Shown here: one piece after another, positions 6,604 to 11,831 of the stretch
Numbering within the stretch: the first letter of the stretch is position 1
Layout: every line of letters starts with the position of its first letter
NCBI GenBank assembly: GCA_913048065.1
Contig: CAJWVG010000001.1
Span: 11,225-75,224, forward strand
Origin: an uncultured Gammaproteobacteria bacterium
GTDB lineage: Bacteria; Pseudomonadota; Gammaproteobacteria; GCA-002705445; GCA-002716945
Direction of reading: 5' to 3'
DNA: 64,000 bases
Program-made: the position numbers and the translations under genes
Notes under the pieces: model-generated
Seen by the model: only the letters and a program-made list of their open reading frames with translations
The model's database searches: none
What the model was told of the DNA's origin: nothing

Positions 6604-7291
6604 AGTAAGGCAAAATAATCCACTGATAATTATTGCCCTTGATTACGATAATGAAACAGATGTACTTGATCTTTGCAATAAATTGAGTCCAGCAGAATGT
6701 AGATTAAAAATTGGTAAACAGCTTTTTACAAAGTATGGACCTGATATAATAGAAAAAATTCATAATCTTGGTTTCGAAATATTTTTAGATTTAAAATTTC
6801 ATGATATACCGACCACAGTCCATAAAGCTTGTTTAGAAGCATATAAGCTGGGTGTTTGGATGTTGAATGTACATTTATTAGGTGGCAAAGATATGATTAT
6901 GGCAGCTAAAGAAGCAAGAGATTCTATAAATCCACAGCTTAATCTGATCGGTGTTACATTATTGACTAGCCATAATCATGATGATTTGAAATACTTTAAT
7001 GCAAACACTAGACAAGAAGTCGTACAAAACCTTTCTGAAATAGCCATTGAATCAGAAATCGATGGAGTAGTATGTTCTCCGGGTGACATCGAAATAATTA
7101 ATAAGCATAAAAATTCTTTAAAATTTATTACACCTGGCATAAGACTTAATGATGTAAGTAATGAGCATGCTAAAACATATACTCCTGAATCTGCTATCAA
7201 TTTAGGTAGTTCTTATTTGGTTATAGGGAGGCCAATTACTGAAGCTAGTGACCCAATGTTAGTAATTAATCAAATTAATTCTAATATTTAA
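6596..7291 (+). CDS. pyrF: orotidine 5'-phosphate decarboxylase
   Basis: IIALDYD and DLKFHDIPTTV motifs. Confidence 0.9.
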   Translation: MNKVRQNNPLIIIALDYDNETDVLDLCNKLSPAECRLKIGKQLFTKYGPDIIEKIHNLGFEIFLDLKFHDIPTTVHKACLEAYKLGVWMLNVHLLGGKDMIMAAKEARDSINPQLNLIGVTLLTSHNHDDLKYFNANTRQEVVQNLSEIAIESEIDGVVCSPGDIEIINKHKNSLKFITPGIRLNDVSNEHAKTYTPESAINLGSSYLVIGRPITEASDPMLVINQINSNI

Positions 7292-8276
7292 AATTCTCTA
7301 ATAAATTTTGGTAGTCTGACTTATTATTAAATTTAGCGCCATATATTTGTATTATTTTTGAAGCAGAAAAATTAGCAAAGCTTAATGATTCTAGAAAATT
7401 TCCATCATCATATTTGTGCATAAATGAACCTAAGAACATATCTCCAGCTCCTGTAAAATCTTTAGAATCTACATCCAAACCTTCAACTTTATAAGTATCA
7501 GTCCCATCGTAACAAATAGCTCCTTTAGAGCCCAATGTTATTATATATATATCTGTAATCTCTTTGAGAAAATTCTGGGCTTGAGATAAATTTGTGGTTT
7601 CGGAAAAATTTAATGCTTCTTGTTCATTACAAAAGATTATATGTGATTTATTATTAAATAGTTTTAATAGATTATCGCGAAAATATTTTACAATATTAGG
7701 ATCCGACAGAGTTATAACTGATTTTGTATTATTTTCTTGAGCAATGGCTAATGCTTCGATACTTACATTCATTGTTTCATCTGATGTTACGAGATAACCT
7801 TCTATTAACAAATACTCCGAATCTTTGATAGATTGATTATCGATATCATCAATACTTAACAAGCTCGATGAACCAAGAAATGTATTCATTGTTCTTTCAT
7901 TATCAGGTGTTATCAATACTAAACATTCGCCACTTTTATTATTATCAAGCTTAGAAATGAATGTTTCTACACCTGATTTGTTAAGACACTCTATAAAGTT
8001 TTTTCCAGACTCATCATCAGAAACCTTTCCAGAGAAACAGACTTTATCATTATACTGAGCCATTGCAAATACAGAATTAGCAACTGAACCACCTGGTATG
8101 ATTTTTTCTGGCGGTCTCATTTTTTTCAAAGACTGATGTAATTTAGAATGTTTATCATACTCATTGAGTAACATGCATCCTTTTTCTAATTCAAGTTCCT
8201 TTAAGACTGAATCATTTACTTTATATTCATAATCTAATAGTGCATTACCAATGCCATATAATTTATATTTTTTCAT
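7281..8276 (-). CDS. PfkB-family carbohydrate/nucleoside kinase (adenosine kinase-like)
   Basis: GGSVANS and DFTGAGDMFLGSF (PfkB signature 2). Confidence 0.75.
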   Translation of the reverse strand: MKKYKLYGIGNALLDYEYKVNDSVLKELELEKGCMLLNEYDKHSKLHQSLKKMRPPEKIIPGGSVANSVFAMAQYNDKVCFSGKVSDDESGKNFIECLNKSGVETFISKLDNNKSGECLVLITPDNERTMNTFLGSSSLLSIDDIDNQSIKDSEYLLIEGYLVTSDETMNVSIEALAIAQENNTKSVITLSDPNIVKYFRDNLLKLFNNKSHIIFCNEQEALNFSETTNLSQAQNFLKEITDIYIITLGSKGAICYDGTDTYKVEGLDVDSKDFTGAGDMFLGSFMHKYDDGNFLESLSFANFSASKIIQIYGAKFNNKSDYQNLLENFKY

Positions 8277-8300
8277 ATTTTATCTCTATAAATAATCTAC

Positions 8301-8354
8301 TACCACTGATCGGACTCGAACCGATACTTTCTTGCGAAAAAGGGATTTTGAATC
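8301..8354 (-). repeat. 54-nt direct repeat: a duplicated 3' half of tRNA-Leu(CAA). It is the distal att-like end of the inserted islet.
   Basis: Identical to 11047-11100 (anticodon loop through the 3' end of the tRNA gene). Identity ends exactly where the tRNA sequence would continue. Confidence 0.85.
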
Positions 8355-8586
8355 ATTTTGAGTAAACTGTATGAATCGCAAACCCTTATATTTATTGACC
8401 TATAGAATAACACAGATAAATGTTTGTGTAATGCTTGTTCTATATTAACAAGCACCAACTTCTTTACCTGTGTATGTCATGTCGCTATAGTTTTATCCAC
8501 AGGCATGGCAGAAAATTTTAGACATGCACATCACAATTTGTTGATGTATGATTATTAAATAAAGAACTACTAAACCATCTTCATAT

Positions 8587-8595
8587 TGTTATAAT
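8587..8595 (+). promoter_or_regulatory. candidate extended -10 promoter element (TGTTATAAT) for the ORF at 8633
   Basis: TGnTATAAT lies 38 nt upstream of the ATG. The -35 region is poor. Confidence 0.25.
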
Positions 8596-8632
8596 TAAAG
8601 AATATCTATAAAAATATTAGTTTAAGCGTATC

Positions 8633-9793
8633 ATGTCTAAGAAAGTTAAAAAGAAAGTTAAAAAAGAACCTACCGCTGATGAGGTTGTCTATGAAAAAGC
8701 CCGGAAGTTCATAAAATCTCTGGGACCTGAAATAGAAGAAAAGTTTAAAAATATTAATGGAAAGACTAATCCAGTAGCTGTTCCAAAAAAACTTTATCCA
8801 GATAGAACACATAGGAGGAACAGAGCTTTAATATCTTGGAAAACGGTTAAAAAAAATAAACTCACCATTAGTCAGCTAAATACTTTCAAAAATGGTATAT
8901 GTGTCGAGTTTATAAATGATGACATCTTGAACGATATTTCTGAACTTGATGAGACGTATAAAGAGTTAAAAAATAGAATTGGTTCAGATGAAAATGTATC
9001 ATCTATTATCACTTTTCGAGTAGAGGATGGAGATCCTGGCGCTACTGTGGCAAGAGAAAGTTTTAAAAAGTTTGAAAGCTTAGAATCTGGAATTGAGTTA
9101 AAAAAAATTGAACGAGTATCAAAAAAAATTCATGTTGATGCTGGTTATGCAAGATTTCCAGGCCAAAAGAACGAGTTCTGGAAAGGAAATGCATACTATG
9201 ATATTAGTGGTGGTAAACAGAAAAAGGATTCAATAAAAAGTCATACAAGTGAAGACAAGCTAAATCTTTTTAATTCGGCTAATGAATATGCAAATGATGT
9301 GGTATGTAATGATTTATACATCACTTTATTTTATTTTTTTATACATTGTCATGATATTGATCAGAAGTTTAATGATAAGTTAGAAGATTTTACTAACATA
9401 AAACAAGAGTGTGAAGACTATCTTAGAACAAGGGATTATGATGAAAATAATCTCTATGAATATTGTATTACGAATCCATGCTTAACTTATAATAAAGGTA
9501 TCTTAACTGACCCTATAGAAGTTAAAAAAATAAGTGTTGATGATTTTAAGGAGCAAAATACTAAAAAACCAGAGCATATAGCGCTATGTCATAATGAGTC
9601 AGCTGATAAACAAATTATAAAATTTGATAAAATTAATGGGTGTATAGTATCAGCCGCGAGACCAACAAATATGTTTTGGATGTATCATACTTCTAACATG
9701 CTTCAACAAAACCATATTCTTGAAGAGTACATTACATTAGAAGCCGAAAGAGTCAATAGGAGGCATAAAATTTTCGAGAAAAACAAAGAATAA
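8633..9793 (+). CDS. hypothetical protein, 386 aa. Candidate restriction endonuclease partner of the adjacent methyltransferase.
   Basis: A long ORF with a Lys-rich N-terminus (KKVKKKVKK) that I cannot place in any family. It converges on the MTase gene with a 1-bp gap inside the tRNA-flanked islet. Confidence 0.6.
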   Translation: MSKKVKKKVKKEPTADEVVYEKARKFIKSLGPEIEEKFKNINGKTNPVAVPKKLYPDRTHRRNRALISWKTVKKNKLTISQLNTFKNGICVEFINDDILNDISELDETYKELKNRIGSDENVSSIITFRVEDGDPGATVARESFKKFESLESGIELKKIERVSKKIHVDAGYARFPGQKNEFWKGNAYYDISGGKQKKDSIKSHTSEDKLNLFNSANEYANDVVCNDLYITLFYFFIHCHDIDQKFNDKLEDFTNIKQECEDYLRTRDYDENNLYEYCITNPCLTYNKGILTDPIEVKKISVDDFKEQNTKKPEHIALCHNESADKQIIKFDKINGCIVSAARPTNMFWMYHTSNMLQQNHILEEYITLEAERVNRRHKIFEKNKE

Positions 9794-9794
9794 T

Positions 9795-11030
9795 TTATAT
9801 ATCCCATTCTTCATATTTTATCTTTTTAAACATATCACCACTTTCTTTATCTAGTTTTTTCTTAATTGCCTTTTTAAACATTTTCTTATTTAATTCTACA
9901 CCTATGCCAATTCTTCCAAGTTCGGCAGCAACTTTGGGCGCAGTAAAACTTCCAGCAAACGGGTCTAGAACCTTTTCTCCAGCATATGTAAACATTTTTA
10001 CTGCCATCTCAGGAATGTCATCAGGAAATGGTGCCGTATGACCTAATGTATTCTCACCTTTTGAGTTAATCTTAATTACAGGAGAGAATTTAATAATATC
10101 TTTTCTCCATTTATTAATTAAAGATTTATCTATCATATTTAAATCACTCTCTCTATCTATAGATTGGGTAAAGTTTGTCTTGAGTGAAAATCTCTTACCT
10201 CTATTTGATTCACTTCGTTCAGGGCAGTTATTATTTTTACATTCCCAACTTTGTAATCCTGGTTCTGTTTGAGTATTACCATTAACTTTTAGTGTCCCAC
10301 ATCTCGGGCACGGGTATCTGGTTAAGTCTAATCTATGTTTATGGAAAATGAGTATATGTTCATATGAATTTATTGGATATTGGTACATTGGAAAAGGTTT
10401 AGAGTCATTCTTATTTCTTTGACTTTGAACCTCACCTTTATCCCAGATTAAATCATCAACAAAAGTGAACCCTTCCTCTTCAAAAATTCTTGTAAAATAT
10501 GCTCCAAGCGGGATCCTTGTTTTACCCCATACCGATTTTGTTTTAGTATTTGGATTATCAAATATATCACCGACATTAAAAACCCATACTCTATGATTGT
10601 CCAAGACACGATAACTTTCTCTGATGATTTCTCTCATATCATCAAGGTATAAATTTATATTATCCCACTGAGAATAATCTCTTGCATTGTAATATGGCGG
10701 GGAAGTTACCATTAATTGTATTGATTCAGAATCCATTAATTTCAGAGCATCCAAACAATTACCCCAAATTAATTTTGTGTTAGATTTTTTATTTTTAAGA
10801 AAAGCATTAAACTTTTTATCAGATAATTTATATTCAGATTGATATTTATGTTTAATTATATCTTGGTATATATCATTGAAGATCTTTATGCAATCTTTTT
10901 GACTGTGAGGATTTTTTTTTGAAAGTTTTTTTATTAAGTCAGCATACTCTTTATCATTAAGCACTTTTTTTAAATATTTAACGCTTGTATGTATTATATT
11001 ATCAAAGTGATTATTGAATCGATTTCTCAT
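9795..11030 (-). CDS. beta-class DNA methyltransferase (N4-cytosine or N6-adenine; the SPPY motif favours N4C) with an inserted Cys4 zinc-ribbon
   Basis: Motif IV is LMVTSPPYYNARDY, N-terminal to motif I VLDPFAGSFTAPKVAAELGRIGIGVELN (the beta permutation). There is a CPRCG...CKNNNCP insert. AGGU lies 9 nt upstream of the ATG. Confidence 0.85.
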   Translation of the reverse strand: MRNRFNNHFDNIIHTSVKYLKKVLNDKEYADLIKKLSKKNPHSQKDCIKIFNDIYQDIIKHKYQSEYKLSDKKFNAFLKNKKSNTKLIWGNCLDALKLMDSESIQLMVTSPPYYNARDYSQWDNINLYLDDMREIIRESYRVLDNHRVWVFNVGDIFDNPNTKTKSVWGKTRIPLGAYFTRIFEEEGFTFVDDLIWDKGEVQSQRNKNDSKPFPMYQYPINSYEHILIFHKHRLDLTRYPCPRCGTLKVNGNTQTEPGLQSWECKNNNCPERSESNRGKRFSLKTNFTQSIDRESDLNMIDKSLINKWRKDIIKFSPVIKINSKGENTLGHTAPFPDDIPEMAVKMFTYAGEKVLDPFAGSFTAPKVAAELGRIGIGVELNKKMFKKAIKKKLDKESGDMFKKIKYEEWDI

Positions 11031-11046
11031 AATTTTTACCTAATAA

Positions 11047-11100
11047 TACCACTGATCGGACTCGAACCGATACTTTCTTGCGAAAAAGGGATTTTGAATC
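11047..11100 (-). repeat. 54-nt direct repeat copy lying inside the intact tRNA-Leu gene (the proximal att-like end)
   Basis: Perfect match to 8301-8354. Confidence 0.85.
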
Positions 11101-11130
11101 CCTCGTGTCTACCAATTCCACCACAGTGGC
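11047..11130 (-). tRNA. tRNA-Leu (anticodon CAA)
   Basis: Cloverleaf with GCCACUG acceptor stem, AAUUGGUAG D-loop, anticodon loop UUCAAAA and a long variable arm. No CCA is encoded. Confidence 0.9.
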
Positions 11131-11173
11131 ATTATAAATTTAGTGTAGCAAACTAATATTTTAGATTCTAATA

Positions 11174-11387: not shown

Positions 11388-11831
11388 TTAGCTGTTGTCT
11401 TCTTTTGCTGTTTTTGCAAGTTTTGCCATCTCTGGACTATAAGCTTCACCTTGCCAGAGCATACTATAGACTATTTCTTCATTCCCATTTTCACAAACAT
11501 CAATTACTTTTTGGAAGAGCGGTTGAAATGTTTTACTTTTATGTGAGTTTTCATGATCATCATACGATTTCCAGAAAGTTATTATAAGAGCTTCACGGTC
11601 TTTCAGTTCTGAGTCTAACGCTTTACCTAACTGACTTCCTTCGTTAGATATTTGACCACTATTTAGTACAACCATACCACCTATGAATCCTGTTTCGGAG
11701 TGATAAGTTTTTACATTTTCACACATCACTGCAACGCGTTCTTGTAGGTCATCAAGAGTATACTCTGGTTTTAAAATAACGCGATTAATTGTGACTATCC
11801 CATCATATGGAAAATTATTTATCAAACTCAT
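11388..11831 (-). CDS. hypothetical protein, possibly ABM/Dabb (ferredoxin-like) fold
   Basis: IITFWKSYDDHENSHKSKTFQ resembles the ABM-domain W-x-S...H..S signature. I am not sure of this. Confidence 0.45.
   Translation of the reverse strand: MSLINNFPYDGIVTINRVILKPEYTLDDLQERVAVMCENVKTYHSETGFIGGMVVLNSGQISNEGSQLGKALDSELKDREALIITFWKSYDDHENSHKSKTFQPLFQKVIDVCENGNEEIVYSMLWQGEAYSPEMAKLAKTAKEDNS

Follow-up and report, generated by a model that had tools for sequence, protein, structure and literature searches.

A polymorphic insertion with a candidate restriction–modification pair and no recombinase of its own at the tRNA-Leu(CAA) gene of an uncultured gammaproteobacterium

Introduction

Several kinds of tRNA-targeted genomic element provide a comparison for the locus described here, a 2.69-kb islet at a tRNA-Leu(CAA) gene within a 64,000-nucleotide stretch of DNA (hereafter the window) from an uncultured marine Gammaproteobacteria bacterium (GenBank assembly GCA_913048065.1, contig CAJWVG010000001.1, positions 11,225 to 75,224 of the forward strand). 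The symmetric anticodon stem-loop of a tRNA gene is a classic target of tyrosine integrases, according to two accounts of tRNA islands (10.1101/2020.11.02.365908; PMC4383910). [quoted passage not shown] The additive flexible genomic islands of streamlined pelagic bacteria range from 330 bp to 42 kb and are bounded by 20-nt tRNA-Lys repeats (PMC10872708), while the tycheposons of Prochlorococcus and further marine bacteria have a site-specific integrase as their defining feature, in most cases accompanied by a replication module (10.1101/2020.12.28.424599).

The islet resembles each of these in part. As in the Islander-type islands (PMC4383910), the tRNA gene is split by the insertion and regenerated by the incoming DNA, with the displaced fragment left at the far end, so that an intact tRNA stands at one end of the islet and a directly repeated fragment of the same tRNA at the other; it differs from them in encoding no integrase, whether of the tyrosine or the serine type, and in being very small (2.7 kb, two genes). 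Like a CIME, it has kept attL and attR and has no integration or transfer genes (PMC5704250), but it bears no trace of an ICE or IME ancestor, and it is one of several members that differ in cargo and have a single conserved end in common, a pattern suggestive of a dedicated, non-autonomous family. The additive flexible islands are likewise strain-variable cassettes beside tRNA genes, flanked by repeats of tRNA 3' ends, small to large and often of unknown or defence function (PMC10872708); here, in contrast, the repeat is 54 nt long and reaches the anticodon loop, one end of about 90 nt is conserved, and in a sister species the tRNA is replaced instead of being repaired. Tycheposons share with the islet their tRNA-targeted cargo, their flanks of partial tRNAs, the occurrence of degenerate remnants and their setting in oligotrophic marine genomes (10.1101/2020.12.28.424599), yet the islet is not a tycheposon, because it has neither an integrase nor replication genes. 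It also lacks what defines an integron gene cassette, an imperfect attC-type hairpin at the cassette end beside an intI/attI platform: its end shows no significant fold, and no integrase is nearby.

Results

An insertion that is polymorphic within one population

Contigs from the same population as the window were found through an identical kinase or an identical 147-aa neighbouring protein. Those with an empty site (L011-L015 and L040-L048; flanks 99.1-99.9% identical to the window) carry a single tRNA-Leu gene, followed by GTAGATTATTT and, after 23 nt, by the start codon of a pfkB-family kinase gene (Pfam PF00294). In the window this core gene lies outside the islet, at positions 7281-8276 on the minus strand. 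Aligned to the window, the empty-site contigs break off at 11044 and continue from 8354, and the 57 nt by which the two parts overlap are the repeat. The site is also empty in the more distant relatives L004, L005, L007, L009 and L010. The same islet, together with its junctions, is present on marine metagenome contigs L021-L030, L032 and L049, of which L023 spans both junctions; in all, at least 17 contigs carry it, with several Tara, ENA and JGI samples among those listed. One of them, L049, equals the window at all 11,512 aligned bases and may be the window's own assembly and not an independent sighting.

Since empty sites exist in the same population, the 2,692-nt insert is a real, polymorphic insertion carried by part of a population that is about 99.5% identical. 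This upholds the proposal of the initial annotation that the locus is an attL/attR-type site-specific insertion at a tRNA 3' half, and that the kinase gene once lay directly downstream of tRNA-Leu: the comparison with relatives that it called for recovers precisely that order, and its own counter-scenario, in which the repeat would be present in all relatives with no empty variant, is excluded. Across L021 and L022 the islet differs from the window at 0 of 2692 positions, against 0.25% in the flanks (Poisson P ~0.001), which suggests recent spread.

A repeat that runs from the anticodon stem to the tRNA's 3' end

The tRNA-Leu(CAA) gene lies on the minus strand, at 11046-11131 according to ARAGORN and 11047-11130 according to Infernal. 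Its 3' 54 nt (11047-11100) recur exactly at 8301-8354, as had been annotated, and the repeat extends to 57 nt, from 8298/11044, if one mismatch is allowed. Identity stops at 8355/11101, where the tRNA would continue. Given the two tRNA placements, the repeat covers the last two bases of the 5' anticodon stem, the loop and everything from there to the discriminator base (GA-TTCAAAA-TCCC...), a span that matches the anticodon-loop-to-3'-end attB class described for tRNA islands (10.1101/2020.11.02.365908; PMC4383910). For a 53-nt core, the window gives exactly two occurrences and 100 dinucleotide shuffles give none, in keeping with the earlier judgement that the repeat is not due to chance. The compositions then quoted need correction: the repeat has 43% GC and not about 50%, and the window 30.5% where a genome of about 28% had been assumed. 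The islet, at 29.9%, has the composition of its flanks. The window has three tRNA genes, and no partial copies of the other two are present in it.

The two copies of the repeat have different neighbours. The intact tRNA (11047-11130, minus strand; Rfam tRNA, 56.4 bits) occupies the ancestral position, with the ancestral upstream region in front of it, and is identical to the tRNA of conspecifics with empty sites. Its repeat copy (11047-11100, minus strand, the attL side) is followed by TTAGGTAAAAATT and the ATG of a methyltransferase gene; the TTAG... that comes next after this copy also follows the element-borne tRNAs of L006, L008 and L016 described below, where the empty site has GTAG. The kinase-proximal copy (8301-8354, minus strand, the attR side) keeps the ancestral downstream spacer GTAGATTATTT..., that is, the ancestral GTAGATTATTTATAGAG spacer and the kinase start codon known from the empty sites. 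Under the classical model, the tRNA-proximal copy would thus be the one brought in by the element and the kinase-proximal half the displaced original.

A conserved end shared by cassettes with different cargo

Directly inside the displaced tRNA half lies an end of about 90 nt (8355-8446, minus strand), here called R1, made up of a CACAAACATT motif, a block TATAAGGGTTTGCGATTCATACAGT and a terminal ACTCAAAATG that abuts the tRNA half; it reads ...CACAAACATT...TATAAGGGTTTGCGATTCATACAGTTTACTCAAAATG and passes straight into ATTCAAAATCCC of the displaced tRNA-Leu. The window holds a single copy. Homologous ends, all of them adjoining a displaced tRNA half, occur in L031 (89% identity to the window end), L008 (81%), L006 (77%) and L017 (73%), so that R1 is common to three other insertions with different cargo (L031, L008 and L006) and to L017. 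The first of these is from the same species and carries unknown proteins of 351 and 124 aa; its left junction was sought through the 351-aa protein, which was found only on short contigs. L017 is also from the same species, with a kinase gene 99.7% identical to that of the window, and its cargo lies off the contig. Two further contigs, L008 and L033, show an islet of a sister species (L008 4093-9975, about 5.7 kb) with an 894-aa ResIII-type helicase/endonuclease, two PF01555 methyltransferases, two small unknown open reading frames (ORFs) and no recombinase. In L006 (1707-3270), also from the sister species, the islet is about 1.4 kb long and its sole cargo is a TylF-type O-methyltransferase.

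Within the species, the element ends are far more diverged than the core flanks. Between the window and L008, the 92-nt end is 81% identical and the kinase gene 71%, with most of the differences in the end falling in its inner half. Because the ends diverge more than the flanks within a species and less than the kinase gene between species, the pattern argues for repeated independent integrations of diverged element lineages together with selection on the end sequence. R1 is a candidate recombinase-binding arm (the P arm of attR).

Other readings of this end were tried. A role as a regulatory element of the kinase gene, which should then be found at empty sites too, is contradicted by the empty-site sequences. 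As an integron attC site, the end folds no better than its shuffles (L008 end, z = 0.17; minus strand of the window, z = -1.5), and no integrase is nearby. Compared by eye, it bears no likeness to the gammaproteobacterial dif consensus, which speaks against a Xer/dif-like site. At the right junction, the window (8355-8376) and L031, L008, L006 and L017 have A(C/A)TCAAAATGATTCAAAATCCC, which nearly duplicates the anticodon loop in tandem.

A diverged second type of end, R2, is found in L016 and L050, the former with cargo for a protein of the uracil-DNA glycosylase (UDG) superfamily and a MORN-repeat protein, the latter with a UDG and a DUF6994 protein; these ends have a single CTCAAAATCC. The left flank, tRNA 5' half, left end and replacement tRNA of L016 (1-1800; JGI 3300020475, Ga0211541_10001220) are identical to those of L006, while its right flank is 99.8% identical to the species of the window, and the contig is either a chimera that assembly produced across an element segment common to both or the product of genuine recombination between species. 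Its exact UDG protein was found on L016 only, and an 88%-identical relative led to L050. There (1-1768), a displaced A-like tRNA-Leu half is followed by the R2-type end, a 70-aa ORF, the UDG-like protein, the DUF6994 protein and a complete L004-like tRNA-Leu(CAA) preceded by ACAAACATT-type motifs, and the contig ends before the left junction. Since the tRNA of L050 is L004-like, different elements carry different replacement tRNAs.

A split host tRNA and a replacement tRNA in the sister species

The islets of L006 and L008 are built differently from that of the window. In both, the 5' half of the host tRNA (...GGGATTCAAAA) comes first, and after it a left-end module about 130 nt long, a complete but different tRNA-Leu(CAA), the cargo, R1 and finally the 3' half of the host tRNA (ATTCAAAATCCC...). 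When the two host halves of L008 are joined with one copy of the 9-nt duplication GATTCAAAA, they give exactly the intact tRNA of L005, an empty relative whose kinase gene is 92.7% identical, and the insertion point in the sister species is thereby mapped to the base.

The left end and R1 show inverted similarity over about 25-50 nt flanking the core. The left end contains two direct CACAAACATT-type motifs, CACAAACATT being directly repeated on both arms, and a 12-bp hairpin whose pairing is kept by compensatory changes between L008 and L006. In their layout, the sister-species ends look like a complex attP, with arm-type sites (CACAAACATT) and core-type sites (the inverted block).

The element-borne tRNA is probably functional, since three compensatory pair changes between L008 and L006 keep its acceptor stem perfect. 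In L006, L008 and L016 its variable arm, T arm and acceptor stem are of the type found in the window and not of the sister-species host type. It is plausible that an element whose tRNA segment agrees with the host needs to bring no more than a 3' half, which gives rise to a long repeat like that of the window, and that in a non-matching host the cell keeps a working tRNA-Leu(CAA) only if the element brings the tRNA whole. The form seen in the window could also derive from the full-length one, had the host 5' half recombined with an element tRNA identical to it and the left end been deleted in the process.

A candidate Type II restriction–modification pair as cargo

Between the repeats, the 2,692 nt consist of two genes and a 278-nt non-coding stretch (8355-8632), and ORF and Pfam analysis agrees in this with the initial annotation. 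A DNA methyltransferase of 411 aa (9795-11030, minus strand) belongs to the N6/N4 class (PF01555; E 3.2e-32, 112.7 bits; PADLOC MTase_II, 1.7e-85) and has a Cys-rich insertion, CPRCG...CKNNNCP. Convergent with it, across a gap of 1 nt, is a 386-aa ORF (8633-9793, plus strand) that a fold search identifies as a candidate Type II restriction endonuclease of the beta-beta-alpha-Me/HNH fold. This protein has no match among Pfam, NCBIfam and PADLOC models and no sequence match in the PDB. It differs from DraIII-type (beta-beta-alpha-Me/HNH) enzymes in that no existing family model matches it and in that it shares only 16% identity with DraIII over 163 aligned residues, and it is some 180 aa longer. 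More than 140 homologues, all unannotated, were found in Acidimicrobiia, Saccharibacteria, Nanoarchaeota, Aciduliprofundum and many metagenomes. In the first two of these groups the homologue, too, lies convergent with a PF01555 methyltransferase, and because this pairing recurs in such unrelated hosts, a methyltransferase with an N6/N4 catalytic domain being kept next to an ORF with a nuclease fold, the two genes are read as a Type II restriction–modification (R-M) system made up of an HNH/DraIII-like candidate endonuclease and a PF01555 methyltransferase.

Several observations concern this pair in other contigs. In L023 and L026, the mismatches to the window fall in two short tracts of the methyltransferase gene, 10356-10488 and 10686-10782 (11 and 8 differences), the rest of the islet being identical, which suggests recombination tracts or allelic variants of the methyltransferase. 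In a metagenome-assembled genome of Acidimicrobiia (L034, 2749-7353), the homologous pair stands beside ScoMcrA_N/HNH_2 and SHOCT proteins in what looks like a small defence cluster. The Saccharibacteria partner methyltransferase is 679 aa long in L037 (5152-7191) and is called as separate ORFs of 189 and 501 aa in L039 (2239-4307), where it may be frameshifted or phase-variable.

Between the tRNA 3' end and the methyltransferase start lies an element-derived spacer of 16 nt (11031-11046, minus strand, 5'-TTATTAGGTAAAAATT-3') with a possible AGG ribosome-binding site. Read-through of the methyltransferase gene from the tRNA promoter is possible, because no terminator-like site lies between the two, the terminator scan having returned only T-arm hairpins. 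Upstream of the endonuclease gene, the element-specific non-coding DNA at 8447-8632 has promoter-like sites on both strands. The 8-bp hairpin annotated at 8432-8454 folds as described and straddles the border with the conserved end (8355-8446); it is not present in the ends of L031 and L008. No Rfam family matches the 278-nt non-coding stretch.

Searches for a recombinase

Pfam, NCBIfam and PADLOC searches found no integrase, excisionase or transposase domain in the islet ORFs, in keeping with what had been annotated; apart from the two genes, no islet ORF exceeds 68 aa, and the tyrosine-recombinase motif HxLR...Y occurs in no ORF of the 64-kb window. Nor is there a recombinase in the islets of L006, L008 and L016, or in the on-contig parts of L031 and L050, both of which are cut off by contig ends. 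Exact-pattern scans of a viral contig collection gave 0 matches each for the R1 end, the host-type tRNA 3' half and the element-type tRNA, and blastn of 8290-8640 against phage genomes gave no match. No autonomous relative of the cassette was found in the searches of viral contigs, phage genomes and JGI metagenomes.

Observations on the neighbourhood

In the three relatives L001-L003 (~9699-9829), which have the most similar kinase (75% at the amino acid level), the same locus has its tRNA-Leu(CAA) on the other strand, with about 220 nt between it and the kinase gene, the result of a local inversion or of re-acquisition of the tRNA. The 147-aa protein encoded next to the site (11388-11831, minus strand) is extremely conserved across the clade and bears a weak, sub-threshold resemblance to sulfur oxygenase/reductase in the N-terminal part of that enzyme (Pfam E 4.5e-4; NCBIfam 2.9e-5). 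In the conspecific contig L044 (5762-6866), the gene calls divide tgt, elsewhere 364 aa long, between two ORFs (161 and 218 aa), which may reflect a frameshift or an assembly error.

Discussion

The comparisons show that the insertion point falls within the anticodon loop, that the tRNA is either regenerated or replaced, that one site has been used more than once, that the element has a conserved end and that it encodes no recombinase in cis. We favour, at a probability of roughly 55%, the reading that the region is an att-flanked, non-autonomous (CIME-like) cassette of 2.69 kb that carries a Type II R-M pair, integrates site-specifically at the anticodon loop and is served by a recombinase acting in trans. 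Both options put forward in the initial annotation, a decayed integrative element and a minimal mobile R-M unit, are compatible with the locus; the occurrence of R1 on recombinase-less cassettes with different cargo at the same site is what makes a trans-mobilised cassette preferable to a one-off decayed island. Integration would proceed by conservative site-specific recombination of the tyrosine-integrase type, with the crossover within the 7-nt anticodon loop TTCAAAA, between the chromosomal tRNA and a circular form whose attP would consist of the conserved end, the loop core and the tRNA 3' half; the recombinase would be supplied by an unlinked gene or by an autonomous relative. Two further steps would need no enzyme from the element: RecA-dependent recombination of one 54-nt repeat with the other could remove the islet precisely, and homologous recombination through the core flanks could carry it from one conspecific to another. 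The R-M pair would defend the cell and would also penalise loss of the islet by post-segregational killing, an effect that is established for Type II systems.

Several points weigh against this reading. The missing recombinase is its key gap: none was identified in the window or in any islet, no viral contig or phage record carried the conserved end or the tRNA halves, and scanning JGI metagenomes with the R1 end gave just 3 exact matches, none with a recombinase, the sampled family being small. A circular or excised form was not observed. The window-type element may already be immobile, since apart from the tRNA half itself no second arm can be recognised in it, and its zero divergence between contigs could come in part from flanks that are a metagenome consensus of mixed strains.

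The best surviving alternative, which we nonetheless consider unlikely, is a decayed island, a once-autonomous, integrase-bearing element reduced to its R-M cargo and att sites that is now inert and moves by homologous recombination between strains. Retention of attL and attR without recombination genes is the very definition of a CIME (PMC5704250), degenerate remnants that lack an integrase and lie between partial tRNAs are a common sight in marine islands (10.1101/2020.12.28.424599), the left-end module of L006 and L008 is missing from the window-type element, and the GC content of the islet equals that of the host, all of which such decay would accommodate. Against it, there is no integrase pseudogene or other remnant in an islet whose methyltransferase starts only 16 nt from the tRNA end and whose remaining non-coding DNA amounts to just 278 nt. 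Decay would also require every sampled member, each with different cargo and about 1.3-5.7 kb in size, to have lost its recombinase separately, which is unparsimonious, and it does not lead one to expect ends that are conserved while the cargo differs.

Far less probable is a transposon-derived mobile insertion cassette, with terminal inverted repeats of the insertion-sequence type, a DDE transposase acting in trans and a strong preference for the tRNA-Leu anticodon loop. The sister-species islets give this idea its footing, with imperfect inverted similarity of about 25-50 nt at their two ends and the 9-nt target duplication GATTCAAAA. In a mobile insertion cassette or an element like a miniature inverted-repeat transposable element, however, terminal inverted repeats lie flush with a short target duplication at both ends, and in L008 they are set back from it by 4 nt on one side and 12 nt on the other, with terminal bases that differ; the CACAAACATT motifs at the two ends are direct and not inverted. 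In the window there is a single such end, and the duplication is 54 nt long and regenerates a tRNA, which is not a product of transposition; there are no copies at other sites in the window. A local tandem partial duplication of the tRNA without relation to the cargo, or an assembly artefact, of the kind that frequent contig breaks at the site (L017-L020) might bring to mind, is already refuted by the islet's presence on at least 17 contigs with L023 spanning both junctions, by the exactness of the empty sites and by the finding that an element end known from cassettes with other cargo adjoins the displaced half.

Beyond the favoured reading of the window itself, we offer more tentatively, at less than even odds, a wider one in which a family of recombinase-less cassettes in a clade of low-GC marine Gammaproteobacteria is dedicated to the tRNA-Leu(CAA) anticodon loop, depends on an unlinked recombinase in trans that would use the shared end of about 90 nt, and has two architectures matched to the host: repair of the tRNA with a 54-nt repeat, or, where acceptor, variable and T arms differ, a split host tRNA together with a whole replacement tRNA-Leu that has a promoter of its own and an acceptor stem that covaries between copies of the element.

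Three things depart from the known pattern: a cassette family without recombinases that shares one end and one tRNA, a variant that replaces the tRNA, and an unannotated DraIII-like endonuclease family. The tRNA-replacing variant would be an unusual route of entry into a host whose tRNA the element cannot repair, and the 386-aa protein represents a family of probable HNH restriction enzymes that is widely scattered and lacks annotation. Streamlined marine bacteria combine large pools of flexible genes with few recognisable mobile-element genes, which raises the question of how small defence and niche cassettes enter their fixed hotspots. The locus is a case of this resolved to the base, with exact empty and occupied alleles in one population, a conserved end and no recombinase in cis, and its site has been reused by different cargo, including two unrelated R-M systems. 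If a recombinase does act in trans on a site of about 90 nt and an anticodon loop, this could provide a compact, reusable integration tool and would explain how cassettes are exchanged.

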